A DNA stretch of 64,000 bases, from positions 64,001 to 128,000 of the forward strand of contig CAXXJS010000040.1 in assembly GCA_963662665.2 (NCBI GenBank), read 5' to 3'. The stretch is from Candidatus Latescibacterota bacterium. Its GTDB lineage: Bacteria; Latescibacterota; UBA2968; GCA-2709665. A model generated the notes under the pieces. It was not told the DNA's origin, made no database searches, and saw only the letters and a list, made by a program, of their open reading frames with translations. Positions 11,256-60,708 of the stretch are shown here, in pieces. The translations under genes and the position numbers were made by a program. Position 1 is the first letter of the stretch, and each line of letters begins with the position of its first letter.

Positions 11256-12230
11256 TCAGAACGACCCTGTCACGGAAAACCGCAGGGTCGCACCATTGTC
11301 GGGGAACTTGTCGAACTTCACGTAGGCAAAATCCGCCTGTACGTGATGAATGCCGCGCTGCAGCCGGACGCCTGCACCGGCAGTGACGTCCTGCACGTCG
11401 TAGCCCAGCTTGTAGCCGGCCCGAAGCGCGACGATGTTCCGCAGCCAGAGCTCCGCCCCCGCGTGCATCCGACGCTCGACGCTCACGCTGTAGAGCGCCT
11501 CGATCGCTCCAGTCAGGGAGACGTCGTCACCCCGCTCCCCGTAGACCTCCGCCGCGGTCGCCATACTGAAGAAAACAGGCATCTTCCCCTTGATGGCTTC
11601 GTCGGTCAGGAGCACCAGGTCCTTTCCGAAGTTGCGCAGCGACATGCCGATACGCAGACTTCGGTATCCGGTATGGTAGAAGGTACCGACCGCCAGGTCG
11701 AAGACGCGGTAGTCGTAGCCCCTGTCCAGTTTTTCCTCGATAACCCGCGCCTGGAACCCCACGGAGAAGCGCTCCGTAAACTGCCTGGCATAGACTCCGC
11801 CAACCGCCCAGCTTCCGGTGTCCAGGATCCGGCCCGTCCCCTCCGGACTGAATATGGTAGTTTCCTCGATATCGCCTGTGTCGAACGCCACCAGGCTGAC
11901 TGCCAGAGCGCCGTAGTCGGTATTGACGCCGATCGCCGCAGAGTTCAATTGGGAATCAAGGAGCCACCTGGTGTTTGTGAACGCAAACTGCAGCCGGTTG
12001 CGGGTCATGGCCGTGAGCCCGCCAGGATTCCAGAAAACGGAATTGATGTCGTCCGCCACGGCAACGTAAGCGTCTCCCATCCCTGCGGCGCGTGCGCTCT
12101 GGGATATTTCGAGGAAAGCCGCGTAGGTCTCGCCCACCGGGGTCTGGTTGGAAATTTCGGCCAACGCCGGGGCGCCGAGAACGAGGACGCCCACAAGCGC
12201 CGTAAAGCCGATCCGATAAATGCGCCTCAT
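11256..12230 (-). CDS. PorV/PorQ-family outer-membrane beta-barrel protein
   Basis: FLEISQSARAAGMGDAYVAVADD..SVFWNPGGL signature; C-terminal beta strand ending in Phe. Confidence 0.82.
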   Translation of the reverse strand: MRRIYRIGFTALVGVLVLGAPALAEISNQTPVGETYAAFLEISQSARAAGMGDAYVAVADDINSVFWNPGGLTAMTRNRLQFAFTNTRWLLDSQLNSAAIGVNTDYGALAVSLVAFDTGDIEETTIFSPEGTGRILDTGSWAVGGVYARQFTERFSVGFQARVIEEKLDRGYDYRVFDLAVGTFYHTGYRSLRIGMSLRNFGKDLVLLTDEAIKGKMPVFFSMATAAEVYGERGDDVSLTGAIEALYSVSVERRMHAGAELWLRNIVALRAGYKLGYDVQDVTAGAGVRLQRGIHHVQADFAYVKFDKFPDNGATLRFSVTGSF

Positions 12231-41463: not shown

Positions 41464-41874
41464 AGAAGGAAGAAGGAAAAACGAAGAAGGAAAAAGGGAA
41501 AACCGCGTGATGTAGTATAGATGATATGGGCGTTTTTCCTGCTTTTATTTCTTCCTTCTGCATTCTTCCTTCTTCGTTCAGATTGAATACGGGCGACAGG
41601 CTACGCGCTTGTCCTGCTCTTATTTCTGCCTTCTTCCTTTTTCCTTTTTCCTTCAAATCACGGCTGAAGGTTGCTCTTGCTGCCATACGCATAACCCCGA
41701 TGGACGATCTCATCGGGGTTTTTCTGTGTCGCACAACGCGACGGATTCGTCGCGAAATGCGTCACTTTGCGATCCGGGCTGAATTGACCAACAACGTCGA
41801 TTTTCATATATTGGTTTTCCGGCTAATTGACTCCGTTCAAGGAAGTTTGCTTGAAGTCTTCTCTAAATGGCGCT

Positions 41875-44800: not shown

Positions 44801-45066
44801 GGCTGAAGCGAGTTTGTATGGGTCGCGACCTGCCGGATCTGGACGCGTGTGCACGTTTTCGCACGGCAACGCGAGCCAACGAAGACATGCGCGAGCCGCA
44901 ACGGCTTCTGGCTGCAGCTATTGGTTCGATCGTTGGGAAGAGCGAAGAACGCGCGGTCGCCAGCTTGTTCTCCCCCGGCGGAACCCAGGGTACGGTTAGT
45001 GAATTCGCGGGGATCAACGACTTCGAGGTCGTCGCCTTTCTCGTGATTCTGGATGGAGAGGATTGA
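41875..45066 (+). CDS. SNF2-family helicase associated with type III R-M loci
   Basis: IIADSVGLGKT (Walker A), VIDESHNFRN (DExH), LTATP, TDCISEGQNLQ, QRFGRIDRIG; start MRIISN at 41875. Confidence 0.9.
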   Translation: MRIISNIGTDRVVDLIQPLLRPGNHIDVASEALSLHAFGELAKNLSRLAKTRLVLPPADADLSLFGAEADRAARNRLQGRWLAEGCAEWIKNAVEVRRANRAVPQGAIVLRNGDGIPQQALIGSFSFSTDGLGLAPGNPLNLIQASETPEESELLCEWFDRQWSSMDADEVAKTGVVDLLRTLSSERDPHSIYALMLYHLFRNKGEELDEEQVVNAATGIRNTAVWKKLFKFQRDGVVGAIEKLDRFGGCIIADSVGLGKTFEALAIIKYHELRNDRALVLCPKRLRDNWSLYRANDRRNFLADDRFNYDILNHTDLSREVGLSGDIDLAHVNWGNYDLVVIDESHNFRNKRTPRQGGETRYDRLMRRVIREGVKTRVLMLTATPVNNRMADLRNQIAFATEGNDTALADEGIESIDATTRLAQRQFNRWLDLDECERTPMQLVEMLGFDYFTLLDRLTIARSRRHIEKYYGTLETGRFPERLKPINVKPDVDLAGVFPSIREINLEIRRLNLAAYAPLRYVLPHKRPAYDEKYSTRLQSGDGFFHQVDREESLVQLLRVNALKRMESSVASFTLTVQRQLADVEAILERIEKKDDELEEREIADIDIEDPAFESLLVGRKVKVLLNDVDRIRWRQDLIEDRNRLATLHAAARQVTASRDAKLAELRAIIESKCRDPINPDNRKTIVFTAFADTARYLYRELATWARDTLGVDSALVTGTGGNQTTLPLRKDLATILTAFAPRTKERPDDLADEGDLDLLIATDCISEGQNLQDCDWLINYDIHWNPVRIIQRFGRIDRIGSPNDRIQLVNFWPNMELEEYLRLEQRVSGRMVLLDISATGEENLIEQQSGDQMNDLEYRRRQLLKLQDAVIDLEDLSSGVSIADLTLTDFRIDLADYLRDAKEDLEMMPPGVHAVTTTTDTDIPPGIIFCLRAEDAAATRPLESGYPLAPHYLVHVSDDGTELMPFTQAKQILDRLKRVCMGRDLPDLDACARFRTATRANEDMREPQRLLAAAIGSIVGKSEERAVASLFSPGGTQGTVSEFAGINDFEVVAFLVILDGED

Positions 45067-45824
45067 TGGCGACCTTCGATACCCTGGCGGCGCTGGCTCT
45101 GCCGGAAGGGGCGCTTGTAAATAAGCGAGTACCAAAGTCGCTTTTGATCGACAACGGCGCGCCCACCGCCGCCGACCGGCGACGCATCCGTGAAGGAATC
45201 GAGGAACTCCGATGGGTAGCGGCACTAAAACCAACGACCATCGGCGTGGCCGAATTCCGCGACGGCACCCGCGAATATCTCGAGATCGCCGTTCTGAATC
45301 TTATCCTTCGGCCCGGGGCGGATGCCGCCAGACTTGCCGAACTGGTCCATCGGGCCGTACCTTATCCGATACTTCTGGTTGTTACAAATGGCGACACTCC
45401 TGATATCTCACTGGTACACAAGCGATGGTCACAAGCCGAAGCCGGCAAAACGGTGATCGACGGAGACATAATAACCTCAGGCGATCTGGATGGCGGCTCG
45501 GATGAATCGACGACCGCGTTTCGCGGTTCGCTCGCGCTCGACCGCCAACGCCGCACCACACTCCACGACCTTTATCAGGGTTGGATCGATACAGTGGAGG
45601 CCCTGAACGCTGCGCGGGTCACCGGCGAATTTACGATGCCCACCTCCTCTACCGCCGCCGCGGAGCGCTCAGCGGCGGTGCGAGACTATTGGCAACTCGA
45701 AACCAGAATCGCCGAACTGCACGGTGAGGCCAAAAAGGAAAGGCAAATCGCCAAGAAAGTCGAGATTAACCTGGAACTGGCACGTCTACGGGAAAAACGC
45801 AGCGCCGTACGTGCAAGGTTGTAG
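45066..45824 (+). CDS. DUF4391 domain-containing protein
   Basis: LP....VNKRVPK, EIAVL, VHRAVPYP, C-terminal AKKERQIAKKVEINLEL; TGATG coupling to the helicase; usual position upstream of mod. Confidence 0.8.
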   Translation: MATFDTLAALALPEGALVNKRVPKSLLIDNGAPTAADRRRIREGIEELRWVAALKPTTIGVAEFRDGTREYLEIAVLNLILRPGADAARLAELVHRAVPYPILLVVTNGDTPDISLVHKRWSQAEAGKTVIDGDIITSGDLDGGSDESTTAFRGSLALDRQRRTTLHDLYQGWIDTVEALNAARVTGEFTMPTSSTAAAERSAAVRDYWQLETRIAELHGEAKKERQIAKKVEINLELARLREKRSAVRARL

Positions 45825-45960
45825 AACGGCCCCACCTGACCTGCCAAGAGAAGCGGCGAATTCAGGATCTCGGGTGACGTGCGTCATTGAGAACTCAAAT
45901 TGCTTCTTTCGCTTTATGTACCACATTCGCAATTGGACCAGACGCAGTACAGGACACTTC

Positions 45961-47475
45961 ATGGCTAATCCCAAACACGTCGAATGGCTGCGCGAAGATG
46001 TTGAGGAATGGAATGAACGACGTAAACAAAGTGACTTTGACCCGGATTTGGAAGGCGCCAATATTCCCGAAGAGTTTGGAAAAGGCGGCAGGGTCGAAAA
46101 TCCAGGGGCTGTAATCCGGCAGAAGCTTTTGGGAAAAAGCGACGATCGTGTCAATCTCTCCAGTATTGATCTAAGCGGCGCCAATCTTCGTAATGCCATT
46201 CTTACGGACGTCAACCTTTCAGGCGCGAATCTTCGATGCTCAGATCTTAAGGGATGCGAGCTTAACGGTGCCATCCTCAATAACGCGGACCTTGATTTCG
46301 CAGACGTCCGCGGCACGGAATTCGGGTTTTGTGCGCAGCTACGAGGAGCCAAAATTTCCGGTGGACAACTGCATTCCGTGGAATTCGAAGACACGTCAAT
46401 GTGTGGGACCGACTTTAGTCAAGCTGACCTAACTGATGCGATACTCGCCAACCGCAATTTCGCCGGCGCGGAGTTCAGGTACGCAAAACTCGAGGGAGCG
46501 AATCTATTCTGTACACAACCGTGGAAGGCTGCCATCTTTTCTGCAGGAAGCAATTACGCAGAACCACGCCTCGTCAATGAGACCGGTAAGATTGTGGACA
46601 GCGTCCAGAGCTTTATTGAAGAATGCGCGGCAATAAGGAGCGAATTCTCGGATCGAGTCTTGTACTTTCGTGGCGAACCTGAAGTATTCCCGGATCTACG
46701 CCCCTCCATTGTGCGAATGGAAAAAGGGAAGTATTCACATCTACAATCTGAAGCCAAGATGATAGTCGACCTAATGACGCGACGGCCTGACGAATTCGAC
46801 CAATTCAATTCGGCACTCTCGCACTGGGTTCTCGCTAGACATCATGGACTTCCCACACGCCTGCTCGACGTAACTCGGAATCCACTAGTCGCATTGTTTC
46901 ACGCGTGTAGCCGAAAATCTGAAGAATCTGCCGAGAAATCAGGACGGATGCATGTCTTCGGGGTGCCCGAAGACCTGATAAAACCGTTCAATAGCGACAC
47001 GATAAGTGTAATTGCGAATTTTGCTAAACTCGCGTGCATCGAACAAAAGCAACTGCTTGGCAAGAAAAAGGAAGATTCGCCGGATGATGTCGATCCTGGT
47101 GGTCCGGAGTGGGCGGGGTCTTATTCTAACGCGCTAATGCGCCTTTATCATTTAATTCGTCAAGAGAAACCTCACTTTCAGGAAAGAATCGACCCACGAG
47201 ATTTCTTTCGGGTATTCGTGGTTGAACCCCAGCAATCATTTGAGAGAATCCGGGCCCAATCCGGTGCGTTTCTTATTTCCGCGTTTCATGAGTCGTTCGA
47301 GCCGAAGAAGATTATAGAATGCAACGACGGAACTCCAATTTACGATTACTGTGTACTCGAGGTGCCTCAGGATTGCAAACGACGAATAATAGAGGATCTT
47401 AGCCTTTTGAACATTACACCCGAGGCATTGTATCCTGGCCTGGACGAAACAGCACGTGCAGTCGCACAGCGATAA
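45961..47475 (+). CDS. Pentapeptide-repeat + FRG domain fusion protein
   Basis: MANPKH..WL..WN..R, A(N/D)L pentapeptide repeats, then LYFRGE, ARHHGLPTRLLDVTRNPLVALFHA, RIRAQSGAF, LYPGLD. Confidence 0.88.
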   Translation: MANPKHVEWLREDVEEWNERRKQSDFDPDLEGANIPEEFGKGGRVENPGAVIRQKLLGKSDDRVNLSSIDLSGANLRNAILTDVNLSGANLRCSDLKGCELNGAILNNADLDFADVRGTEFGFCAQLRGAKISGGQLHSVEFEDTSMCGTDFSQADLTDAILANRNFAGAEFRYAKLEGANLFCTQPWKAAIFSAGSNYAEPRLVNETGKIVDSVQSFIEECAAIRSEFSDRVLYFRGEPEVFPDLRPSIVRMEKGKYSHLQSEAKMIVDLMTRRPDEFDQFNSALSHWVLARHHGLPTRLLDVTRNPLVALFHACSRKSEESAEKSGRMHVFGVPEDLIKPFNSDTISVIANFAKLACIEQKQLLGKKKEDSPDDVDPGGPEWAGSYSNALMRLYHLIRQEKPHFQERIDPRDFFRVFVVEPQQSFERIRAQSGAFLISAFHESFEPKKIIECNDGTPIYDYCVLEVPQDCKRRIIEDLSLLNITPEALYPGLDETARAVAQR

Positions 47476-47575: not shown

Positions 47576-48851
47576 ATGAGACAGATCGCCAATGGAGACC
47601 CAGAATCTCGCTCGGCTGACGTAATTGCCGAGAATGTCGACCAGATAAAGGCGCTGTTTCCCGAGGCAGTAACCGAAGGCAAGATCGACTTCGATATACT
47701 CAGGCAGCTTCTTGGTTCAGAGGTCGATGAACGCGAGGAGAAATATGGCCTTAACTGGTATGGCAAACGTCAGGCACGGCAACTCGCTCTGACGCCATCG
47801 ACTGGAACCCTACGCCCATGCCCGAAAGAGAGCGTCGATTGGGATACAACACAGAACCTGATGATCGAGGGCGACAACCTCGAGGTGCTTAAGATCCTGC
47901 AGAAGAGCTTCGCCGGAAAGGTAAAGCTGATTTATATCGATCCGCCGTACAATACTGGAAAGGAATTCGTATACCCTGACGATTACCGTGACAACATGCA
48001 GAACTACCTCGAAATGACGGGCCAATTGGACAGCGAACGACGAATTCTATCTTCGAATACCGAGGCGACCGGGCGTTTTCATACTGCATGGTTAAACATG
48101 ATGTACCCGCGTTTAAAGATCGCGAGAAACCTACTCTGCGCTAGTGGTGCGATCTTTGTAAGTATTGACGAGAATGAGATTCCAAACCTCCGACTAATAT
48201 GCGATGAGATTTTTGGAGAGGAATGTTTCGTTGCCGTGCTGACCATACTCTGCAATCCGAAGGGGCGTTCTCAGGACAAATATTTCGCGACAAACCACGA
48301 ATATGCATTGGTCTACAGCAAGAGTCAGCTACCGAAGGGATCTTTCTCCGTCGCGAAGAGTGTCAAACAGATAGATAGTGAGTACCGTGAAGAAGATAAC
48401 TTAGGTAAGTACCGCCTGCTCGAACTTAGAAATACTCACCGTGAATTCGGGAAACACAACCGTCCCAATCTCCACTACCCGCTATACTTGGACGACGTCG
48501 GGCGGGTGTTTCTTGAAAGAGGCAGCGGCCGAGTAATGGTTCTGCCCTTGTGGAATGATGGTTTTGAGGGTTGCTGGACCTGGGGTCGATCGAAAGCAAA
48601 GGAACAGAGATCGTTGTTAATTGGACGTAAGGTCGGAGGACAGTGGAAGGTCTATCGCAAGAGTTACGCTAGCGGTGTCAATCAAATGCTAAAAACCATC
48701 CTAACGGACAACTCCTACTTTACGGAACGCGGCCAACGGGAGTTTAACGAGCTTTTCGATACGAAAGGGAAGCTATTCCAATCACCGAAATCCCCGTACC
48801 TAATTGCGCAGTTTTTGCAAACCGCGACGATGGACCGCGATTTAATCCTAG
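47576..48851 (+). pseudogene. mod: Type III R-M methyltransferase Mod, 5' part (interrupted by IS1182)
   Basis: LFPEAVTEGKIDFD.L, IEGDNLEVLK.LQ, IYIDPPYNTG (motif IV), H..WLNMMYPRL, FQSPK; natural frame ends at the CTAG insertion site. Confidence 0.9.
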
Positions 48852-50483
48852 GAGTCTGCGCCGCAGGAAAATTCATTTCAATGGACATGTAGTTGTAGGT
48901 ATAATGGGTCGTGTAGTTGGTATATGTCAAGGGTATCGTTGTGTGTTATGTCAGGGGAGGGAGCGATCCATGCCGACAACGTTTCGACCGTATCACCCGG
49001 ACCAGATATTGCTGTTGGCGCCGGATCTTCGGGAGTGGGTGCCTGAAGGTCATCTGTCGCACCAGGTGAGCGATCTGGTGGATTCCCTGGATCTGGGGTC
49101 GTTCTACGCGCCCTATGAAGGCGATGGTCGTCGCAACGCGCCATATGATCCATCGATGATGTTGAAGGTATTGATCTATGGGTACGCGACGGGAGTGTAT
49201 TCGTCTCGAGCGATCGCTGGGAAGCTGGAGGAGGACGTGGCGTTTCGTATGTTGGCGGCGGGCAATTTCCCACAACACCGGACGATCTGCGAGTTTCGGC
49301 GTCGTCACCTGGAAGATTTCGGGCGTTTGTTCGTGGAGGTGGTTGGTGTGGCACGGGAGATGGGCCTGGTACGTTTCGGGACGTTATCTTTAGACGGCAC
49401 GAAGGTACGAGCGAAGGCCAGCAAGCGCAAGGCCATGAGTTACGAGCGGATGTTGAAGGAACAGGCTCGTCTGGAGAAAGAGATCGGGGCGTTGCTTTCG
49501 GGTGCTGTGTCGATTGATGCCGAGGAGGATGCACGTTACGGCGTGGATGTTCGTGGCGACGAGTTGCCGGTCGAGTTGCAGCGCAGGCAGGCTCGTCTGG
49601 CGGCGATCAGGGCGGCGAGGGAGCGTCTGGAAGCATCGCAACGAGCCGTCGACGATGCGCGCGGGCGCAAACCGGGTCAGAAGCGCAACCCGAAGGGCGG
49701 GCGGCCTTACAAAAGAGCCTATGGCGAGCCCGACCCGAAGGCTCAGAGCAACTTCACGGACCCCGAGTCTCGGATCATGAAGACGAGCGCGGAGGGGTTC
49801 CAGCAGTGCTACAACGCGCAGACGGTGGTGGACGCCGAGCGTCAGATCATCGTGGCTGTGCATCTGGGGTCACAGGCCACCGATCAGGGCTTTATGCTCC
49901 CCTTGCTGGATGGTGTGCAAGAGACATTCGGGGTCAAGCCGGACGCGGTTCTGGCGGATGCGGGCTACTGCAACGAGGAGGACCTGGCCACGCTTGAGGA
50001 GCGTGGCATTGATGGTTACGTGGCGCTGGGGCGGGAGGGCAAGGAAAAGGTGGACGTCGATTCGGAGACGCTTCCGGCGACCCATCGCATGGGCGAGAAG
50101 CTCACCAGCCCGGAAGGTCGGGGCCTGTATGCGAAGCGCAAGTGGCTCTCGGAGGCGCCCAACGGATGGATCAAGGAGGTATTGGGCTTCCGGCGCTTCA
50201 GCTTCCGGGGGCTGGAAAAGGTGCGTGCCGAGTGGGATCTGGTCTGCCTCGCGTTGAACGTCAAGCGGATGGCAGCGTTGTCGATGTGTTGAAGCATGGG
50301 TTCGGGTGTCCTGTCCTTATGGACTCGACATACGGGAAACCACGATCCCTGGAATCTCGCCCTCAACACGCCTGCCTGCAACGATCACCGTACCCAAAAC
50401 TCATCATACCACTCCCAACATAACGACCAACCCGACTCACGGACACACCTCGCCCTTTGTAAAAACTCCTGCGGCGCAGACTC
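48852..50483 (+). mobile_element. IS1182-family insertion sequence
   Basis: Perfect 17-bp TIR GAGTCTGCGCCGCAGGA / TCCTGCGGCGCAGACTC; CTAG duplicated at 48848-48851 and 50484-50487. Confidence 0.92.
48970..50292 (+). CDS. IS1182-family transposase
   Basis: YDPSMMLKVLIYGY.TG..SSR.I, P.HRTI..FR, LDGTK, NFTDPESRIM, YNAQ, ADAGY, E...GWIK...GFRRF..RG. Confidence 0.92.
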   Translation: MPTTFRPYHPDQILLLAPDLREWVPEGHLSHQVSDLVDSLDLGSFYAPYEGDGRRNAPYDPSMMLKVLIYGYATGVYSSRAIAGKLEEDVAFRMLAAGNFPQHRTICEFRRRHLEDFGRLFVEVVGVAREMGLVRFGTLSLDGTKVRAKASKRKAMSYERMLKEQARLEKEIGALLSGAVSIDAEEDARYGVDVRGDELPVELQRRQARLAAIRAARERLEASQRAVDDARGRKPGQKRNPKGGRPYKRAYGEPDPKAQSNFTDPESRIMKTSAEGFQQCYNAQTVVDAERQIIVAVHLGSQATDQGFMLPLLDGVQETFGVKPDAVLADAGYCNEEDLATLEERGIDGYVALGREGKEKVDVDSETLPATHRMGEKLTSPEGRGLYAKRKWLSEAPNGWIKEVLGFRRFSFRGLEKVRAEWDLVCLALNVKRMAALSMC

Positions 50484-51167
50484 CTAGATTTCTTTGCAGG
50501 TTCAGGAACAACGGGACAGTCTGTTATGGCTCAGAATGCAACAGACGGCGGAAATCGTCGGTACATTCTAGTGCAGTTGCCGGAGCCGCTCTACGATTGC
50601 AACGAAAACTTGATGGACGTGTTTGAGCATTACGAACACCACGGAACACCACACACTATTGCAGAACTGACTAAAGAACGCTTGCGTCGGGCCGGTGACA
50701 GAATTAAAGATGATTACGCGAGGTTTTCGGGGGATATTGGGTTCCGCGTCTTCAAATTAGATACCTCAAACTTCCGTGCATGGGAGCCGGAAAGCGACGA
50801 TCTGGAACATACTCTACTCGACAGCATCGACCACATTAAGCCGGATCGAAGTGAAGATGACATTCTCTATGAGCTTCTATTAAAACTTGGACTCGACGTG
50901 TGCGTTCCGATCGAGACTCGTACTATTGTTGGCAAGGCCGTTCGCTCCGTCGGTGCAGGTACGTTAATGGCGTGCCTTGACGAGACGATCGCCCGCGAGG
51001 ACATCGACGCACTAGCCCTCGGTATCGTCGAGTGGTACAAAGAGCTCTCGCCAGCGGGCGGCAGCACTGTTTTCTTCCGCGACAGTGCATTTGCCGACGA
51101 CGTCGCCAAGACGAATCTTACTGCTATCCTTAAGCAGCACGGTCTAGGGAATGTGCGAAGTTTGTAA
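50484..51167 (+). pseudogene. mod: Type III R-M methyltransferase Mod, 3' part
   Basis: Resumes with LDFFAGSGTTG (motif I), RRYILVQLPE, TKERLRRAG, GFRVFKLDTSN, FRDSAFADDVAKTNL. Confidence 0.9.
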
Positions 51168-51215
51168 CCAACGTTGAATATTTCGAGGAATTGAATGTCT
51201 CGGGAGTAACGACCA

Positions 51216-51992
51216 ATGGGCCATGAAAGAGTCGATTCCTTGCCGCGGACGGTAAGATGGCGAAATATCGTTGCTGACATCGCGGGGTTGGAAAGTGGCG
51301 GGGACGCGACCATTTCTGACATCGCCGAACGAACTCTAACGAATGTACGGACGAGATATAACGGTATCTACAAGGATTCAGGTGTACACGCCGCGTTCGT
51401 CTACCTCCTGTCGTTAGCCACGTTTCGCCATAATCGACCTGAAGCTCGTCATGCAGTTGGAATCGACCTTGACGAAAATCCATCGTACTTCCGAATTGCC
51501 GCACAGCTCAATACTTGGGTGTCTAGCCATATCGGTTCAAGTGAGTACGGCGAGATAGCAAGGCGCGCCGGTGGCGACGCTATTGTCCGTTGGACTCAGC
51601 GAATGACGAAACAGGACGATCTCTTTGACGATCCTGCCCGTGCCCAAAGGGTATGGGACGCCGCATCTGACGCGGAAGGATTCTGCGAGATTGCGAGAAT
51701 CTTTTTCGCCAAGTTCACTGAACGGTACTTGCTCTATTTCCTCGAACGTGAGGCATCGGCAGAATCCCCTTCTCTTGACGCCCGAGAGCAGTTTTCCGAG
51801 CAACTAAGTATTCACGTTGATAAGATTTCGAGGCACGCGTACGAGACGTCAAAAATTGGCCAATCATTCGCCGCCGGTTGGTTTAACAATCACGCACGAT
51901 ACAATCATCCTTCGGACGAAGAGGTCGAACAGTTTCTATCTCTCTCGTTCGGGAAACTCCAGGAGGAACTGTATCGGGAGGCTTCTCTGTGA
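51216..51992 (+). CDS. Hypothetical protein, putative partner of the QueC-like enzyme (QatB-like position)
   Basis: 258-aa ORF starting MGHERVDSLPRT; its TGA overlaps the GTG of the QueC-like gene (GTGA). Confidence 0.75.
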   Translation: MGHERVDSLPRTVRWRNIVADIAGLESGGDATISDIAERTLTNVRTRYNGIYKDSGVHAAFVYLLSLATFRHNRPEARHAVGIDLDENPSYFRIAAQLNTWVSSHIGSSEYGEIARRAGGDAIVRWTQRMTKQDDLFDDPARAQRVWDAASDAEGFCEIARIFFAKFTERYLLYFLEREASAESPSLDAREQFSEQLSIHVDKISRHAYETSKIGQSFAAGWFNNHARYNHPSDEEVEQFLSLSFGKLQEELYREASL

Positions 51993-53842
51993 ACGCGTCC
52001 CGACCAGTGTTAGTTCTTGCTAACGGTGCCACGGATCCCGACAATGGGGCTCACCCGCTAATACTGGACTACAAGCCTGACGATGCTGGGCGACTAATGC
52101 ATATCGGCCTGCCGTCTTTCATTGGTAATTTGTTTCACATTCCCGACCGTACACTCGACTTGCTCGAAATTGCAGCCTATGTATTTACAGCAGATCGTTT
52201 GCTGCACCGGGGCCAATCAAATGCGGTCGAGTATCACAGTTGGTCCCGATCGATTGAGTTTCATGTTCGAGTACGTGATTTCGACTTTTGGAACACCGAT
52301 TCAGTTAAGCAAGCACTATCAGATGTCCTTTTGTTTATGACGGGAGACGCCTTAATCACATTCCACTTCCAACCTGGACACTGTACTCCTCCGACGGGTC
52401 TATTTGACAGTAGTGAGTTTTCGCTAAAAGGCTTGGCCGAAGCAACGGTTACATTATTCTCTGGTGGAATAGATTCGCTTTCAGGAGCATTGGATCGCTT
52501 GAACGAAACAGACTCCAAAGTGCTTCTGGTTACCCATCAGTCGGGGGTAGCAAACATGCGCACACAACAAGCACTTGTCCGTAGGTTGCAACAAGAATTC
52601 CCACGAAGAACCCAACATTATCGATTCAGATGTACTCTTCGCGGCCAGCGCGCTGTCGAAGAGACACAGCGATCCCGTTCATTCTTATACACATCTATAG
52701 GATATGCAATAGCATCAGCGTGGAAAAACGATCATATGTTCATTTACGAGAACGGTGTTACAAGTATCAACCTCAGCAGGCGAGAGGATCTAGCGAATGC
52801 AAGAGCAAGTCGTACGACCCATCCTCGAACCATCTGGCTGCTTGAAATGCTATTTGGTCTTCTTCATGAATCTGAATTCAGAATCCATCTCCCATATCTT
52901 ACCCTCACAAAACGAGACGTCGTAAAACGTCTTTCCAACAACGCCCCAAACTTGCTATCGAGTACTGTTTCGTGTACTCGCACATTTAAGACCGAGGGCC
53001 AATCGACGCACTGTGGATCATGTTTCCAGTGCATCGATAGACGAATCGCAACCTACGCGGCGGGTGTTAATCAGCTTGACCACCAGGGTTTGTACTCACG
53101 CGATATTGTCCATAACCCGATCGAGGACCGTGCTGCTAGGACGATTACCGTAGACTATCTCAGGCAAGCAAGACGTTTCACCGAATGGAACTTGGCGAAA
53201 TTCGAACACTATTACCTCAGCGAGATAGCCGAATTAATCGGTTGTTTACGAGTCGGAGACACAGAGGAACAGCAAATTGAGATGGTGTGGGGCCTGTTAC
53301 AGAATCACGGGGAACATGTGCGTGAAGGTGTACAAAATATGTTAGTGAACCGGTGTGATCCGTTAGAGCCGCTTACTGACAATTCCCTACTGGCGTTGGT
53401 AACGTCTGGAGAGCATACAAAACCAGAGGTCCTTCGACTTGCACAATCATTAGTGCAGATCTTGGAATCGAGCGTGGGCGAGATGTTCCGCCGTGACCGC
53501 CCCCAAGACGAGAATGATCTAAACACGAAACTCGCCGCATTGCTTCGAACCCACGAGCCACGGCTTACGAGTGAGCATCCTACGGAATCGTTCGCTTGCG
53601 CTGGCGTGGTTCCTGATCACGAATTGCATTCCTCAAGTTTATTGTTGGAAGCAAAATACATTAGAAAGTCAACCTCACCCTCAAAGGCTGCGGAAGGTAT
53701 CGCTGCGGATTTGACTAAGTTTCCGGCGAACTGCTTCATTCTCTTTATCGTTTACGATCCAGACCACGCCATTAAATCTGATTATCAGTACCGTATGGAC
53801 ATTGAGACTCATGGTAGAAATGTGGTGGTCATTGTGCGATAG
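51989..53842 (+). CDS. QatC/QueC-like PP-loop enzyme fused to a C-terminal PD-(D/E)XK nuclease-like domain
   Basis: DLLEIAAYVFTADR N-domain, LFSGGIDS PP-loop, EETQRSRSFLY, YENG, SRTTHP, C-x12-C-x2-C-x2-C-IDRR; C-terminal ENDL...VPD...LLEAK...FIVYD. Confidence 0.82.
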   Translation: MNASRPVLVLANGATDPDNGAHPLILDYKPDDAGRLMHIGLPSFIGNLFHIPDRTLDLLEIAAYVFTADRLLHRGQSNAVEYHSWSRSIEFHVRVRDFDFWNTDSVKQALSDVLLFMTGDALITFHFQPGHCTPPTGLFDSSEFSLKGLAEATVTLFSGGIDSLSGALDRLNETDSKVLLVTHQSGVANMRTQQALVRRLQQEFPRRTQHYRFRCTLRGQRAVEETQRSRSFLYTSIGYAIASAWKNDHMFIYENGVTSINLSRREDLANARASRTTHPRTIWLLEMLFGLLHESEFRIHLPYLTLTKRDVVKRLSNNAPNLLSSTVSCTRTFKTEGQSTHCGSCFQCIDRRIATYAAGVNQLDHQGLYSRDIVHNPIEDRAARTITVDYLRQARRFTEWNLAKFEHYYLSEIAELIGCLRVGDTEEQQIEMVWGLLQNHGEHVREGVQNMLVNRCDPLEPLTDNSLLALVTSGEHTKPEVLRLAQSLVQILESSVGEMFRRDRPQDENDLNTKLAALLRTHEPRLTSEHPTESFACAGVVPDHELHSSSLLLEAKYIRKSTSPSKAAEGIAADLTKFPANCFILFIVYDPDHAIKSDYQYRMDIETHGRNVVVIVR

Positions 53843-54087
53843 GCACCGAGCGGATTGAAGCCTGCTGCGTAAGGAGTATGTACAATTGCCAGGCGCGAGG
53901 TTCGAGATAGGAAAGTTTGTACTTCCACTCCCAACTCCGGGTGATCAATACGGCCTTTAGTCCCTCTCGTTGCCGAAAAATTGTCGATTTCGGTCCAAAG
54001 TTACCCGCACTTTACACTGGTTTCATCGATTGCAAGGTTCACCGCGATCTGCCATGCCGGAACCATTAACCAACGCCAAAGAGAGTT

Positions 54088-55095
54088 ATGACAGATAGTG
54101 CGTATTACTATCCGGCACCGTATTGGGCAATGAGGGAAGGAGGGTGGATTAAGTCGCTCCTTCTGTTCTTCGACGAAGTCGCAATCTTGCTGCCGGACTA
54201 CATGTATGGACGTCATGTACAAGCGGATCCTACCCTTGCCGGTCCACTTGAGGATCTCGGATTATTAAAGGTGCTCGAACCAAACAATTGGGTCGATGCG
54301 GAGGCCACGAATCAGCTTGCAGAAATTGTCGTTGACCTGCTTACAAATGGCGCATTCGATGACCTTCCAAAGGCAGTATATTTCGCGGAATTGTCGCAGT
54401 CAAGAATTGGTTACGGTGCCGACGTCAACTTGGCAAGTTTTCTGGTTGCGGAACTCAGGACAAGAGGACTTGCGCGCACGAGCGAGGACGGAGTTTCAAT
54501 TCCCCTTCATCCCGCTGTCCGAACGACCATACTCGTCATTCTCGCACAGCTCTCTCGGGTAACCGGAGCCAAGCGCGGGATGATCGTACATCCAACAACG
54601 AACTATGCTGAAGCTGTTCGTGACCTAGTCGAGACGTTGTCAAGAGATCGCATGCCATCGCGCGAAAACGTAATCAAGCTTGATCTTGAACCCGTAACAT
54701 TTGATTTGGAGACGATTCCACTTGACGACGTCCTACAGTTCCGCACTGAACACAAAGATGCGCACCGAACATATATGCGTAATCTCAGAGGCTTCATGGC
54801 TGAACTCGCCGAGCTCGAAGACACCAAGGTACGAGAAGCTATACTTTTAGAGCGCCGTCAAGAAATCGCTGACGCAGCCCACGAAATCCAGCGGTCTACG
54901 CGAAGGGAACTCGGCAAGGATTTGGGCTCGTGGTCGTTAGGTATTGCGGGCGGTTTTTGGTCATTGGCCTCTGGCGACCCAATCGGCCTAGCACTCACCG
55001 CAACTGGCCTCATTTCCGGAATCGTGTCCAGATCTCCGAAGCAAGTCGGCGCGTATTCCTACTTGTTCGAAGCGAGTAACACTTTTGCGAGATAG
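54088..55095 (+). CDS. Hypothetical protein, DUF6236-like, with C-terminal hydrophobic hairpin
   Basis: AYYYP...WIKSLLLFFDEVAILLP N-terminus; IPLDDVLQFR; C-terminal WSLGIAGGFWSLASGDPIGLALTATGLISGIV. Confidence 0.6.
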   Translation: MTDSAYYYPAPYWAMREGGWIKSLLLFFDEVAILLPDYMYGRHVQADPTLAGPLEDLGLLKVLEPNNWVDAEATNQLAEIVVDLLTNGAFDDLPKAVYFAELSQSRIGYGADVNLASFLVAELRTRGLARTSEDGVSIPLHPAVRTTILVILAQLSRVTGAKRGMIVHPTTNYAEAVRDLVETLSRDRMPSRENVIKLDLEPVTFDLETIPLDDVLQFRTEHKDAHRTYMRNLRGFMAELAELEDTKVREAILLERRQEIADAAHEIQRSTRRELGKDLGSWSLGIAGGFWSLASGDPIGLALTATGLISGIVSRSPKQVGAYSYLFEASNTFAR

Positions 55096-55295
55096 CGGGT
55101 TTTCAGCATCCAAAAAACCGGAAAATCTAAAGAGCTTAGAAGAGATTTACGTCTACGTTAGAATCCGGCACAAACGACGAGGCCCTGTCTGACACGACCG
55201 CCCGTGGGAGGGTCATTACTATCGAGTTCAATGTCTTGGACGCTTCCGTACCTTGAGACATGAAATTAGCCTTACCCAATGTCTCCGACGCCATG

Positions 55296-55501
55296 ATGCT
55301 GATCGCGTGCCTCGACGAGACGATCGCGCGGAAGGATGTCGAACCGCTGGCCCTCGGTATCGTCGAGTGGCACACAGGGCTCTCGCCCGCCCGAGACAGC
55401 ACTTTGTTTTTCGCGACAGTGCAGTTGCCGACGACGTCGCCAAGACAAATCTTGCCGCTCTCCTAAAACAGCACGCTCTGGAGAATGTGCGCAGTCTGTA
55501 G
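55296..55501 (+). pseudogene. Degenerate duplicate of the mod 3' end
   Basis: Encodes ACLDETIARKDVEPLALGIVEW and, after a frameshift, FRDSAVADDVAKTNLAALLKQHALENVRSL*, matching ~50962..51167. Confidence 0.85.
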
Positions 55502-55582
55502 GACGATCCATTATCCGGCCGTAACCGATTCTCCACGAGTCTCATTTTCGGTGAGCGAGTTCGTTCTAGTACCCTTTGACGG

Positions 55583-56251
55583 CTAAAGCACGGCGTAGTC
55601 TGGATACAGCTTTCTCAGTTTGATGCGAGCATCGTCGGTCGTGAACCGCCAATGGACGGCCTTGCTATTGTTGTTGCGATCATTCGTCCAAGCGGAAGTC
55701 TGCTCTTTGAGTGAATCGATATCGGGGATGCGCTGCTTCAAGCATTGGTTGCTCAAGACACTCAGTTCGATCTCGGCGATGTTGAGCCAACTCCCGTGTT
55801 TGGGCGTGTAGTGGATTTCGAGACGCCTGGCCAGACGGCGAGCTTCTTCGGGTGAGAACGCCTCGTAGAGTGCCGCGGGCGTGTGCGTGTTGAGGTTATC
55901 ACACACCAGGACGACGGTTTCGGCTTCACGGTAGTCCGTATCCAGAAGCTCCTTGATCTCCTGGGCCCAGTCCAGTGCGGTCTTGCGTTGTCTTACACGG
56001 ACCTTGCGCCAGCACGAAAGCGGTTCAGTGAACATGAAGTTCACGGCGGTTCCGTTACGTTCATACTCGTAGTCGTAGCGTTCAGGTTTGCCCGGACGTG
56101 TAGTGACCGGAACACGCGTCTCCTTGACCAACTGAACCGGGTGTTCGTCCATATTGACAACGGGCCTCAGGGCGTCGTACGGCCGCTGATAGACATCCAG
56201 GATATCCTCCATCGCGGCGACAAACGCGGCGTTTTGCTTGGGCGGAATCAC
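55583..56251 (-). CDS. IS630 transposase, DDE part (OrfB)
   Basis: VVNMDE, YDYEYERNGT, VCDNLNTH, HYTPKHGSWLNIAEIELS. Confidence 0.9.
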   Translation of the reverse strand: MIPPKQNAAFVAAMEDILDVYQRPYDALRPVVNMDEHPVQLVKETRVPVTTRPGKPERYDYEYERNGTAVNFMFTEPLSCWRKVRVRQRKTALDWAQEIKELLDTDYREAETVVLVCDNLNTHTPAALYEAFSPEEARRLARRLEIHYTPKHGSWLNIAEIELSVLSNQCLKQRIPDIDSLKEQTSAWTNDRNNNSKAVHWRFTTDDARIKLRKLYPDYAVL

Positions 56252-56262
56252 CCAGCACGTTC

Positions 56263-56718
56263 TCAGGTGAGGCCTAAGTTTGTTTTTTTAAGCGTTCGCT
56301 GCACCGTCCGGTATGAGATGCTATCGACGATCTCCAGGGCTACGAGCTCATCGGCCAAAAGCTTCAGCGTCCACCGCTTACGTCCCGTTGGAGGTTCACT
56401 GCAAGCCAACGCGATCAATCGGGCTTCCTTAGCACCATCCAGCTTTCTTTCGGTGGGAGGATGGGCGCGCTTCTTTCGCTCAAGGGCCGAATCCAGGCCC
56501 TCCAACACAAAACGCTTCCGGATGCCCTCAACCGTAGACCGATTGCACGAAAAGGCCTCCGTGATCTGCCGATCCAGCCAGGCCGGACCCTCTGCATCGG
56601 CCTTGAGAAGCACATGCGCGTGCCTGATTCGGTACGCTTGCGTCTTGCCTTTGCTTACCAGATCCTGCAGCCGTTCCCGTTCTTCGGGACTCAGACGTAC
56701 GACGTATTTCTTCGGCAT
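56263..56718 (-). CDS. IS630 transposase, HTH part (OrfA)
   Basis: KYVVRLSPEERERL, LIALACSEPP.G..RWTL.LLA, ends near an A7 slippery run (TLKK). Confidence 0.88.
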   Translation of the reverse strand: MPKKYVVRLSPEERERLQDLVSKGKTQAYRIRHAHVLLKADAEGPAWLDRQITEAFSCNRSTVEGIRKRFVLEGLDSALERKKRAHPPTERKLDGAKEARLIALACSEPPTGRKRWTLKLLADELVALEIVDSISYRTVQRTLKKTNLGLT

Positions 56719-56976: not shown

Positions 56977-59952
56977 ATGAAACTTCATTTTGAACCAAAT
57001 CTCGAATTCCAGCTTCAAGCGATTGATGCCGTCTGTGACCTTTTTCGCGGGCAAGAAATCTGCCGAACCGACTTTACGGTCACGAGGGAAGCGGTGGGGT
57101 CCCAGGAACGTCTTGGATTTGACCAGAGCGATCTCGGCATTGGCAACCGGCTGACCCTTCTGGATGATGAGATCCTGGAAAACCTCCGCGCCATCCAGCT
57201 TCGGAACGGACTGCCTCCAACAGACCATTTGGACTCTGGTGATTTCACTGTGGAGATGGAGACCGGCACAGGAAAGACGTATGTGTATAGCCGTACCATT
57301 TTCGAACTGAACAAGCGTTACGGGTTTACCAAATTTGTAATTGTCGTGCCATCAATCGCTATCAAAGAGGGTGTCTACAAGTCGCTCCAGATTACCGAGG
57401 AACACTTCAAAGCACTTTACTCAGGCGCGCCATTCGACTATTTCCTCTACGATTCAGCCAAACTTGGCCAGGTGCGAAATTTTGCAACCAGTCCACAAAT
57501 TCAAATCATGGTTGTGACCGTCGGCGCCATCAACAAGAAGGATGTCAACAATCTATACAAGGAAAGCGAGAAGACGGGTGGCGAAAGGCCTATCGATCTT
57601 ATCAAAGCGACCAATCCGATTTTGATCGTCGATGAGCCTCAAAGCGTAGACGGAGGTTTGCGAGGTCGGGGCAAAGAGGCACTTAGCGCCATGAATCCTC
57701 TCTGCACGTTTCGCTACTCTGCAACGCACGTCGACCGACATCACATGGTGTATCGACTCGATGCAGTCGACGCATACGAGCAAAAACTGGTGAAGCAGAT
57801 CGAAGTGGCAGCCGCCACAGTCGAAAACGCGCACAACAGGCCCTATGTCCGGCTGATTTCAACGAGCAACCGTAGCAGAACGGTGAGTGCCAGGGTCGAA
57901 CTCGATGTTGAAACGCCCACCGGAGTTCGACGTCGGGAAGTCAACGTGCTTGATGGTGACGATCTCGAACAAACAACACGACGCGCTGTGTATCGAAATT
58001 GTCGGATCGGTACGATCTGCGCCGGGAGGGGTAACGAACTGGTTGAGCTGAGAGTACCCGGCGACGAGGAATACCTGCGTCCCGGTGAATCCTGGGGCGA
58101 CGTGGACGTACTTGCCGTTCAACGAGAAATGATACGCCGTACCATCCGGGAACACCTCGACAAGGAGCGACGTCTCAGGCCACAGGGCATAAAGGTGCTC
58201 AGCCTGTTTTTTATTGACGCGGTAGATCGGTACCGTGCGTACGATGAAGACGGGAATGCAGTCAAAGGCGTGTATGCCGAAATATTCGAGGAGGAGTATC
58301 GCCGTTTCGCAAAACATCCGGATTACCGCACGTTATTCGGAGAGGTCGATCTCGATAGAGCCTCGGACGAAGTCCACAACGGCTACTTCTCGATCGATAG
58401 GAAGGGCGGCTGGACGGATACTGCGGAGAACAATCAGACCAACCGTGACAACGCCGAGCGTGCGTACAATTTGATTATGAGAGAGAAGGAGCAACTGTTG
58501 AGCCTCGACACACCGCTCAAGTTCATATTCTCCCATTCCGCATTACGGGAAGGATGGGACAACCCCAATGTATTCCAGATTTGCGCTCTGCGCGACATAC
58601 GGACAGAACAAGAAAGGCGCCAATCCATTGGACGGGGACTACGCCTTTGCGTTAACCAGGACGGCGAGCGGCTACGCGGTTTCGATATCAACACGCTGAC
58701 GGTCGTAGCGATGGAAAGCTACGAGGAATTCGCGGAGAACCTGCAACACGAAATCGAGAAGGATACAGGGATACGCTTCGGAATCGTCACTTCCCACGAA
58801 TTCGCGTCGATTCCGGTTATTGACAAGGACGGCGAGATTACCGCGCTTGGGATTGACGCGTCGGAGGAATTGTGGGAACATCTGAAGGAAGCTGGATATA
58901 TCGACGCAACTGGTCGCATACAGGACTCGCTCCGCAAGGCGCTGAAAGAGGATACGTTCCTCGTACCAGAACTTTATGCTAAACAACAGACTGAGATCTC
59001 CAAAGTGCTACGTAAGCTCGCGGGGCGTCTCGACATCAAAGACGCAAACGAACGTCGGTCGGTGCGAACCCGGCAGGCTGTTTTCCAAAGCGCCGAATTC
59101 AAGTCGCTCTGGGACCGGATAAAATACAAGACAACCTATCGAGTTGTGTTTGACAACGAAAACCTGATTAACCAGTGCATCGATGCGCTTCAGAAAGCAC
59201 CTGCAATCCCAAGTACAAGGCTCCAGTGGCGGAAGGCCGATATCGCTATCGGAAAGGCCGGGGTCGAAGCCACTGAGAGACAAGGTGCCGCGACGGTTAC
59301 GTTGAACGAGGCAGACATTGAGCTGCCCGATATACTCACAGACCTCCAGGATAGAACGCAGCTCACACGGAGGAGCATCCACCGAATCTTGTGCGAAAGC
59401 GGACGGCTTGAAGAATTCAAGCGCAACCCTCAGCAGTTTATCGATCTGGCCGATCAGGCTATAAACCGCTGTAAAAGGAAAGTTTTAGTCGACGGAATCA
59501 AGTACCAGCGCCTGGGCGACGATCATTACTACGCACAGGAACTGTTCCAAAACGAAGAGTTGACGGGCTACTTGAAGAACATGCTTGATGCAACAAAGTC
59601 AGTCTACGACAAGGTCGTTTACGAATCCGGCGTGGAAGCTCAATTCGCCGATGATCTTGAGAACAACACGGCTGTTAAGGTGTATGCCAAGTTACCGGGG
59701 TGGTTCGAAGTGCCTACGCCTCTCGGTGGGTACAATCCCGACTGGGCAGTATTGATCGATTCCGAAGAAGGAGAGCGGTTGTATTTTGTCGTGGAAACGA
59801 AGGGAAGCCTGTTCACCGATGACATTCGAGACGCCGAGAGTGGCAAGATTAAGTGCGGCAAAGCGCACTTTAATGCGCTCAAGGTAGGCGAATCGCCGGT
59901 TCGATACGAAGTGGCGACCAGTTTCAGCGACTTGCCTACATCTGCAGGTTGA
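56977..59952 (+). CDS. res: Type III restriction endonuclease Res subunit
   Basis: VEMETGTGKTYVY, IVDEPQ, YSAT, HSALREGWDNPNVFQIC, C-terminal YNPDWA...VETKG nuclease motif. Confidence 0.93.
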   Translation: MKLHFEPNLEFQLQAIDAVCDLFRGQEICRTDFTVTREAVGSQERLGFDQSDLGIGNRLTLLDDEILENLRAIQLRNGLPPTDHLDSGDFTVEMETGTGKTYVYSRTIFELNKRYGFTKFVIVVPSIAIKEGVYKSLQITEEHFKALYSGAPFDYFLYDSAKLGQVRNFATSPQIQIMVVTVGAINKKDVNNLYKESEKTGGERPIDLIKATNPILIVDEPQSVDGGLRGRGKEALSAMNPLCTFRYSATHVDRHHMVYRLDAVDAYEQKLVKQIEVAAATVENAHNRPYVRLISTSNRSRTVSARVELDVETPTGVRRREVNVLDGDDLEQTTRRAVYRNCRIGTICAGRGNELVELRVPGDEEYLRPGESWGDVDVLAVQREMIRRTIREHLDKERRLRPQGIKVLSLFFIDAVDRYRAYDEDGNAVKGVYAEIFEEEYRRFAKHPDYRTLFGEVDLDRASDEVHNGYFSIDRKGGWTDTAENNQTNRDNAERAYNLIMREKEQLLSLDTPLKFIFSHSALREGWDNPNVFQICALRDIRTEQERRQSIGRGLRLCVNQDGERLRGFDINTLTVVAMESYEEFAENLQHEIEKDTGIRFGIVTSHEFASIPVIDKDGEITALGIDASEELWEHLKEAGYIDATGRIQDSLRKALKEDTFLVPELYAKQQTEISKVLRKLAGRLDIKDANERRSVRTRQAVFQSAEFKSLWDRIKYKTTYRVVFDNENLINQCIDALQKAPAIPSTRLQWRKADIAIGKAGVEATERQGAATVTLNEADIELPDILTDLQDRTQLTRRSIHRILCESGRLEEFKRNPQQFIDLADQAINRCKRKVLVDGIKYQRLGDDHYYAQELFQNEELTGYLKNMLDATKSVYDKVVYESGVEAQFADDLENNTAVKVYAKLPGWFEVPTPLGGYNPDWAVLIDSEEGERLYFVVETKGSLFTDDIRDAESGKIKCGKAHFNALKVGESPVRYEVATSFSDLPTSAG

Positions 59953-60156: not shown

Positions 60157-60708
60157 ATGTCTGACAGTAACAATCAGGATGTGAAATGGAACGCGGAATT
60201 CATGATGGACAACGCACGGTCGTTGCAGCGTGTTGTGCAGGACATCGAACGAGATACGAAGCAGTCTTTGGAATCGGATCTGCTCCTTTTCAAAGGACAA
60301 CTACTGGCGGGTCCAATCCTATTGTCATTGGCGGCGGAAATCGCACTGAAGGCACTGCTGTGTTGGGAGAAAAACAAAACCCCTATCCAGACCCATGACT
60401 TGCTGAAGTTGTTCATGTCGCTGGAAGAGAGCACACAAGAGTTACTGGAAGCAAGAATGCGGAAGGTAAGCCCATACTCGATACGTGCAGACCAGCCGGG
60501 CATGCAAAACCTGAATCCCGACGTTCAAGAGATGTTTTCAGCAAAGATGCATCCCCTGCGCGACGTTTTATGTTCTCACCGTGACTCGCACACACATTAT
60601 AGGTACCTCTACGAGAAGCATGGAGGCCGGTTCGAAATTGGTGAAATCAATCATGCACTAAACGTGATATTTGACGTCTACTACGAGAGGCGTCGTGATT
60701 CGCCTTGA
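60157..60708 (+). CDS. HEPN-domain-like protein
   Basis: LAAEIALKALL...THDLLKLF..L...YRYLYE pattern typical of HEPN folds. Confidence 0.65.
   Translation: MSDSNNQDVKWNAEFMMDNARSLQRVVQDIERDTKQSLESDLLLFKGQLLAGPILLSLAAEIALKALLCWEKNKTPIQTHDLLKLFMSLEESTQELLEARMRKVSPYSIRADQPGMQNLNPDVQEMFSAKMHPLRDVLCSHRDSHTHYRYLYEKHGGRFEIGEINHALNVIFDVYYERRRDSP

Follow-up and report, generated by a model that had tools for sequence, protein, structure and literature searches.

A QatC-like enzyme with a fused nuclease and its QatB-like partner as a probable two-gene anti-phage module in a Latescibacterota genome

Two overlapping open reading frames (ORFs), ORF258 and ORF617, in a 64,000-nucleotide (nt) stretch of Candidatus Latescibacterota bacterium DNA (assembly GCA_963662665.2, contig CAXXJS010000040.1, positions 64,001 to 128,000 of the forward strand; the window in what follows) probably constitute an anti-phage module of two genes that is self-contained and has the QatB-QatC core of QatABCD as its relative, a reading to which a probability of roughly 70% can be given. 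The larger protein joins a QatC-like PP-loop enzyme to a C-terminal nuclease domain and the smaller is a QatB-like protein that is the presumed substrate of the enzyme. Homology of the enzyme module, an intact nuclease motif, strict pairing of the two genes, the Met-Gly tail of the partner, swapping of effector domains among relatives and a setting in a defence island were all observed and carry this reading. Since ORF258 behaves as the counterpart of QatB, and since QatB and QatC alone protect against lambda-vir (PMC13279940), the pair is apparently a variant of the QatBC core with a fused effector, not described before, and not a wholly new system. A preliminary description of this DNA had proposed a distinct QueC-based defence module. 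The compact pair without QatA or QatD was borne out, but the module is less separate from Qat than had been supposed.

The QatC-like enzyme and its fused nuclease

A match to the PADLOC QatC model (PDLC02214, which has no curated cut-off) at 4.4e-47 covered residues 53-384 of ORF617, and the solved QatC chains 9vlk and 9zee aligned to the protein at 4.8e-26 and 1.9e-21, respectively. In a Foldseek search with the AlphaFold2 (AF2) model of ORF617 (predicted local distance difference test, pLDDT, 81; predicted template modelling score, pTM, 0.84), the top PDB chain was QatC 9y01_B (E 1.6e-16; template modelling score, TM (target), 0.74). Because this match extended over 484 columns, both of the extensions that are specific to QatC, i.e., the N-terminal and the C-terminal one, are present.

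All of the motifs that had been quoted in the preliminary description as a QatC-type QueC signature were found in the ORF617 translation (i.e., DLLEIAAYVFTADR, SGGIDS, EETQRSRSFL, ENG, RTTHP and C329-x12-C342-x2-C345-x2-C348), and the module holds the N-terminal extension motifs, the SGGIDS PP-loop, RxRSF, ENG, SRTTHP, P(x)4TK and a Cys4 zinc site. The published QatC signature consists of D(x)4R...WxR, RxRxxxF/Y, ExG, HP, P(x)4TK, a four-Cys zinc site and an SGGxDS PP-loop (PMC13329287). Beside the PP-loop, the corresponding residues of ORF617 are D69(x)4R74...W85-x-R87, R228-x-R230-xxx-Y234, E254-x-G256, H278-P279, P302(x)4T307-K308 and C329/C342/C345/C348, with a D69...W85 spacing that is 3 residues longer than the published one and a Cys spacing of x12 as opposed to x19. 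The signature motifs were all invariant in an alignment of 23 sequences. Ser274 is a conservative change at the first of two Thr that are essential in Pseudomonas aeruginosa QatC (PMC13279940).

In contrast with these results, the score with the canonical QueC model TIGR00364 was only 18.8 bits, for a cut-off of 150.3, and the host genome has two canonical QueC genes on other contigs. QueC and Cap9 carry Tyr and Asp at the deazaguanine-binding positions (PMC13279940), where ORF617 has the QatC-type S/T-R-T-T-H-P loop in the form SRTTHP. Because TIGR00364 remained far under its cut-off and the genome has two canonical QueC genes elsewhere, ORF617 is, as judged from its sequence, a QatC-type enzyme and not a queuosine QueC, in agreement with what had been proposed.

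A feature that had not been recognised in the preliminary description is the C-terminal domain of ORF617 (residues 506-616), which matched PF18742 (DpnII/MboI type) at 43.1 bits (cut-off 27, E 4.1e-11) and contains the motif E529 ... P542-D543 ... E554-x-K556. The catalytic residues were kept almost throughout 64 sequences (E529, D543 and E554 in 64/64 and K556 in 63/64), and this fused PD-(D/E)xK nuclease domain is the likely effector. In a sample of 80 related loci from a species-representative genome collection, to which all of the locus counts below refer, the match reached the nuclease end in 63. A TIR domain in place of the nuclease was found in five of 10 variant loci scanned, with an MGH-type partner beside the enzyme in each TIR locus. 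Among 1.84 billion cluster representatives, there were 3869 relatives with E <= 1e-3, and 828 with E <= 1e-30. Of 48 listed relatives with a match that ended before the nuclease domain, four carried TIR_2, two PNP_UDP_1, two Trypsin_2 and one a sigma-54-type AAA+ domain, the rest having no Pfam domain. In sister proteins, that is, a TIR, a PNP-like phosphorylase or a trypsin-like domain takes the place of the nuclease.

The C-terminal tails of three loci (L051, L064 and L072) had no PDB sequence relative and no Pfam domain (E <= 0.01), and a simple hydropathy scan predicted no membrane helix in them. In L064, a 197-amino-acid (aa) tail (11378-11968) stands in place of the DpnII-type domain; because a D...ExK-like pattern was noted in it by eye, this tail may be a different PD-(D/E)xK nuclease.

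The partner and the predicted complex

ORF258 belongs to a family of 833 homologues. In an alignment of 26 of its sequences, M1, G2, H3, E4, R5, L9, P10 and W15 were invariant, which gives an N-terminal pattern of MGHER...LP....W. An MGxxR start was present in each of the 76 partners that could be assessed in the related loci (MGHER in 64 of them), the other four lying at contig ends or lacking their 5' part. This invariant start parallels the N-terminus of QatB, which has a disordered tail and an essential MGTS with Gly2, and in which the G2D substitution abolishes defence (PMC13279940). The AF2 model of ORF258 (pLDDT 78), with residues 1-30 below 50 and 11 helices in the remainder, likewise predicts an all-helical protein with a disordered N-terminal tail. 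When this model was compared with 350,542 PDB chains, QatB chains 9y02_A and 9y01_A came top with Foldseek probabilities of 1.00 and 0.99, respectively, and all other chains had probabilities of 0.21 or less. The traits that ORF258 has in common with QatB are a position directly upstream of the enzyme gene, a disordered Met-Gly tail and a helical globular domain. A comparison with PDB sequences yielded RahU only, at E 0.57, which was set aside as a chance match.

Binding of ORF258 to ORF617 is supported by prediction of the complex from residues 1-480 of ORF617 and ORF258, each with its own alignment. The complex score was 0.91 in three runs whereas the best of three controls scored 0.00; for comparison, 58 of 80 solved complexes attained this mark, as did two of 110 mismatched pairs. 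At least 87% of contacts were common to the runs and the pLDDT of the partner in the complex was at least 87. The predicted interface on ORF617 consists of a loop (264-274) and helices (381-417) that are the counterparts of the loop and C-terminal helices published for QatC. Residues 1-11 of ORF258 were placed by the model against residues 77-86, 226-227, 258, 261, 330 and 345-350 of ORF617, so that the N-terminal tail of the partner is predicted to sit in the QatC-like active-site region. Because QatBC complexes have already been solved, the high score may reflect likeness to these and not be independent proof.

Extent, distribution and setting of the pair

The coordinates and the GTGA coupling of the two ORFs agreed exactly with those given previously, the GTG start of ORF617 (51989-51991) and the TGA stop of ORF258 (51990-51992) being read directly in the sequence, and GGGAGG precedes the GTG by 8 nt. 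In the related loci, which come from many phyla, the QatC-like gene was immediately preceded by an ORF258 homologue in 80 of 80, a recurrence greater than expected by chance. Among 79 pairs, the overlap of start and stop was 4 nt long in 47 and 8 nt long in 10. No comparable association was seen for ORF335, which follows ORF617 after a gap of 245 nt and had been listed together with the pair. A homologue was present in a single locus (L009), as a partial copy on the opposite strand. When neighbour ORFs were clustered all against all, no third gene came up in more than nine loci, the reach of the largest family. ORF335 was therefore rejected as a component of the system. The homologue in L009 (12172-12531, 52% identity) is situated just downstream of the pair. 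ORF335 itself has no Pfam, PADLOC or NCBIfam family and no PDB relative; in the ESM Atlas it fell with DUF6236 clusters (score 0.98), a lead only as the recognition value is low. When the three proteins were compared with PADLOC models, as had been suggested, ORF617 was assigned to QatC but ORF258 and ORF335 were not matched.

The type III restriction-modification (R-M) locus, within which the pair had been described, was not conserved either. The C-terminal part of mod had matches in none of the 80 related loci and res in one, and weak matches (22-34% identity) to the N-terminal methylase domain of mod occurred in five. This setting of the pair is thus incidental. The proposed examination of neighbourhoods for QatA and QatD gave a similar result. 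When 145 upstream neighbours were compared with PADLOC families, QatA did not rank among the 25 most often matched, and the same was true of QatD for 142 downstream neighbours; therefore, at most three and two neighbours, respectively, can match. At the locus itself, no QatABCD operon, with the KAP NTPase QatA and the TatD nuclease QatD alongside, was found. In agreement with the earlier statement that QatA, QatD and a CD-NTase (cGAS/DncV-like nucleotidyltransferase) are lacking, KAP NTPase was encoded on another contig only and TatD on two other contigs only, and no SMODS/CD-NTase was detected in the host genome, whose completeness is 92%. The unit accordingly consists of two genes, with none of ORF335, mod, res, QatA and QatD conserved beside it. 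A promoter and terminator scan of 50400-55700 was uninformative, with counts at chance level.

A collection of one genome per species (185,579 species), searched with patterns derived from the ORF617 clade, contained at least 499 stretches in which a relative is encoded. These relatives span many phyla and include one metagenome-assembled genome labelled as an archaeon. The 120 listed full-length homologues of ORF617 were 48-90% identical to it, among them relatives of 90% and 75% identity, and a metagenome scan for closer relatives yielded only copies of 44-50% identity. Within the phylum, the distribution of fused homologues is patchy (four of 168 genomes), the only other fused copy in the genus is 49% identical, and canonical QatB occurs in five of the 168 genomes. 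In a FastTree phylogeny of core columns (ORF617 residues 50-450; 401 columns, 96 rows, local supports only), all nuclease and TIR forms fell together in a clade (62 rows, support 99) from which the four canonical QatC proteins in the tree, all of the same phylum, were excluded. Within this clade the nuclease label requires 6-10 changes, and the PNP-fused protein P0382 was among the nearest relatives of ORF617. A second set of 28-29 QatC-like proteins (P0464-P0509, approximately 600-700 aa), mostly with no Pfam domain in their C-terminal regions, grouped with canonical QatC and not with the ORF617 clade. A few copies look damaged: in G060 (L096, L101) the enzyme is split into pieces 1-556 and 549-617 and looks broken, and in L029 (6621-11383), which looks interrupted, the partner reads as an ORF lengthened to 452 aa that lies approximately 2.3 kb away from the rest of the enzyme gene.

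The commonest neighbour clusters in the 80 loci were phage-type integrase (nine loci), HsdM (eight) and type ISP (seven), followed by HsdR (six and four), Schlafen/AlbA_2 (six), HsdS (five) and YhcG nucleases (four); a housekeeping family, sulfatase, was found in five loci. At least 25 of the 80 loci hold an R-M, Schlafen or YhcG cluster, a lower bound that has no background control. PADLOC tallies of nearest neighbours were led by type I, II, IIG and III R-M, Drt4, Drt6, mad2 and PDC-S02.

In the window, the pair is part of a defence island (41.8-60.7 kb) that holds further defence-type genes (Table 1). Its location between mod and res, as given in the preliminary description, was confirmed in position, but mod is split by an insertion sequence (IS) of approximately 1.6 kb, and a remnant of the mod 3' end and an IS630-type element come before res. 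A single PADLOC MTase_III model matched both halves of mod, at profile positions 5-413 and 427-620, and the IS between them is bounded by perfect 21-nt inverted repeats (48848-48868 and 50467-50487). The mod 3' remnant lies between ORF335 and the IS630-type element, which in turn separates the cassette from res. The remnant, a diverged copy, is probably a scar left when the cassette was acquired by recombination, and together with the IS630-type element it suggests that the pair arrived in this way.

Table 1. Positions of the pair, its domains and surrounding features in the window
Feature	Position	Strand	Remarks
ORF258: QatB-like partner, presumed substrate	51216-51992	+	258 aa, ATG start
ORF617: QatC-like PP-loop enzyme with fused nuclease	51989-53842	+	617 aa, GTG start
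QatC-like module of ORF617, residues 53-384	52145-53140	+	PADLOC PDLC02214
C-terminal PD-(D/E)xK nuclease domain of ORF617, residues 506-616	53504-53836	+	PF18742
ORF335	54088-55095	+	335 aa, ATG start
HKD-SNF2 helicase, upstream of the pair	within 41827-47475		PADLOC C3a139, 1.2e-115
DUF4391 protein	within 41827-47475		defence-type gene upstream
Pentapeptide-repeat and FRG protein	within 41827-47475		candidate system PDC-S15, 5.8e-70
Type III mod, split by IS of ~1.6 kb	47576-51167		
IS within mod: DDE_Tnp_1 transposase	48904-50292		
Remnant of mod 3' end, ~200 bp	55302-55500		80-85% identical to 50967-51166
IS630-type transposase	55583-56718	-	two ORFs: DDE_3 (222 aa) and helix-turn-helix (HTH) part (151 aa)
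res, looks intact	56977-59952		
HEPN-domain ORF, just downstream of res	60157-60708		183 aa; PF05168, 5.2e-05

Relation to known systems, alternatives and proposed mechanism

The QatABCD anti-phage system reportedly goes back to Gao et al. 2020, and solved Qat structures are available as 9y01, 9y02, 9vlk and 9zee. The present pair resembles the QatBC part of this system in that ORF617 belongs to the QueC family and has the extensions at both termini, the loop and the motifs that are specific to QatC, in that the upstream overlapping gene encodes a helical protein of approximately 260 aa with a disordered Met-Gly tail, and in that the 1:1 complex predicted for the two proteins uses the same surfaces. 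It differs from QatABCD in lacking QatA and QatD and in that enzymes of the ORF617 type carry a fused effector, i.e., a nuclease or, in relatives, a TIR, PNP-like or protease domain. In a published survey, only about one third of the QatC cluster was associated with qatA or qatD (PMC13329287). The ORF617 clade is also separate from the four canonical QatC on the core-region tree.

A second point of comparison is Cap9 of type IV cyclic-oligonucleotide-based anti-phage signalling systems (CBASS), which carries out N-terminal deazaguanylation of a CD-NTase (10.1101/2025.04.06.647259). By analogy, the two systems would have in common an ATP-dependent QueC-family enzyme, an exposed N-terminal glycine on its partner and use as an immune switch. 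Cap9, however, is a minimal protein of approximately 185 aa in which the substrate residues of canonical QueC are retained (PMC13279940); it has a CD-NTase as its substrate and needs Cap10 and a signalling pathway, whereas no SMODS/CD-NTase was detected in the host genome of ORF617. With PF18742 endonucleases, ORF617 shares a C-terminal stretch of 110 residues that scores above the cut-off and keeps E...PD...ExK; in contrast with those enzymes, the domain forms the end of a larger, regulatory protein and has no cognate methyltransferase conserved beside it.

A published description of an effector-fused QatBC-like pair was not found, although the QatC neighbourhood tables of PMC13329287 may list fused forms. 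Term searches within three Qat papers (PMC13279940, PMC13376578 and PMC13639016), the QueC-family paper and a TIR survey revealed no mention of fused forms, the term QatC-like was not found in the literature, and QueC and DpnII occurred together only in unrelated papers. Literature searches on fused QueC forms and on conflict systems brought up nothing beyond one general review.

Several results weigh against a QatBC-type defence module. With regard to ORF258, the fold match to the two QatB chains was weak (E 0.055 and 0.072, TM 0.39-0.55, with TM 0.47 and 0.55 at E 0.055), the motif is MGHER and not the MGTS of QatB, and the spacing from Pro to Trp differs. ORF258 had no match in Pfam, PADLOC (E <= 0.1) or NCBIfam; the PADLOC QatB model detected nothing in the whole genome even at E <= 10; and hhalign of the ORF258 family (26 sequences) against canonical QatB (26 sequences) gave a probability of 1%. 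The precomputed Pfam field was empty for all 120 listed ORF258 homologues, unlike canonical QatB, which carries PF28083. Given the negative PADLOC and hhalign comparisons, sequence homology between ORF258 and QatB cannot be claimed, and ORF258 is for this reason described as a counterpart of QatB and not as a member of its family. On the enzyme side, ORF617 scored 187.8 bits with the NCBIfam QatC model NF041925, under the cut-off of 280 bits. As to enrichment in defence islands, the neighbour counts cover the most frequent families only and have no background comparison. For the canonical system itself, the QatC reaction and the way in which modification of QatB restricts phage are described as unresolved, and QatC activity has not been reconstituted in vitro (PMC13279940). 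Finally, we infer defence by the pair, binding (as predicted), the modification chemistry and the nuclease activity, as opposed to having observed them.

An alternative is that the pair is a toxin-antitoxin or addiction module, in which ORF258 would inhibit the nuclease by binding and the QueC-like domain would be a scaffold, with no dedicated anti-phage function. The tight coupling of two genes, the toxin-like nuclease domain, the patchy distribution and the integrases and mobile DNA near related loci are all in keeping with such a module. It is nevertheless an unlikely one, as the PP-loop, all QatC active-site motifs and the first five residues of the partner are invariant, which points to catalysis on the tail and not to plain inhibition, and exchange among TIR, PNP and protease domains is typical of immune sensors. 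Moreover, many toxin-antitoxin pairs are abortive-infection systems, so that this explanation overlaps with an anti-phage role.

That ORF335 belongs to the unit as a third gene, or that the unit is an accessory to the flanking type III R-M system, is very improbable, even though the three ORFs are co-oriented between mod and res and the L009 fragment stands just downstream of its pair. That fragment is the only ORF335 homologue in the related loci and is partial and on the other strand, no neighbour cluster exceeds nine loci, the mod C-terminal part and res recur in none and one, and ORF335 is set apart by its 245-nt gap; mod, in addition, is broken by an IS, and the foreign mod 3' remnant would mark a recombination scar. 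The least credible of the alternatives is modification-dependent restriction similar to that of dpd, with the QueC-like domain making a 7-deazaguanine derivative for DNA and the nuclease cutting DNA according to whether it is modified. Fusion of a QueC-family domain to a restriction-type nuclease would suit this explanation, as would the canonical QueC genes of the host, which could supply precursors. The score with the canonical QueC model (18.8 as opposed to 150.3), the QatC-type loop at the deazaguanine-binding positions and the lack of a conserved transglycosylase or other third gene in the 80 loci do not agree with it, and the invariant Met-Gly partner would be left without a role.

For an anti-phage module related to QatBC, the following mechanism can be envisaged. 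ORF258 would bind 1:1 to the QatC-like half of ORF617 and thread its N-terminal tail into the PP-loop active site. Removal of the initiator Met would expose Gly2. By analogy with Cap9 and with the model proposed for QatC, ORF617 with ATP would activate a carboxylate and join it to the amine of Gly2; this carboxylate is 7-carboxy-7-deazaguanine in Cap9 and is not known for QatC. The modification state of ORF258, changed by infection, would then gate the fused PD-(D/E)xK nuclease, and the released nuclease would cut DNA and so keep the phage from replicating, perhaps with loss of the cell. Sister lineages would employ the same sensor pair with the nuclease swapped for a TIR, PNP-like or protease effector. 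The trigger, and the gating link between modification and activation of the nuclease, are presumed. The central idea, that the QatC-like domain tags Gly2 of the partner covalently (with a group of the deazaguanine type or another) and that presence or loss of this tag licenses an interchangeable effector, is offered tentatively and is rather more likely to be wrong than right.

If this idea is true, the family of ORF258 and ORF617 would be a missing link that shows the purpose of the QatBC reaction, and a general immune logic would emerge in which N-terminal tagging gates an effector, parallel to and independent of CBASS. The ORF617 family wires a QatBC-like sensor pair to an explicit effector domain that can be assayed, and the fused effector thus gives a direct biochemical readout of the upstream reaction, i.e., DNA cleavage or loss of NAD. 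The pair is also a simple two-gene construct for genetics, and its built-in effector could help to explain how Qat kills.

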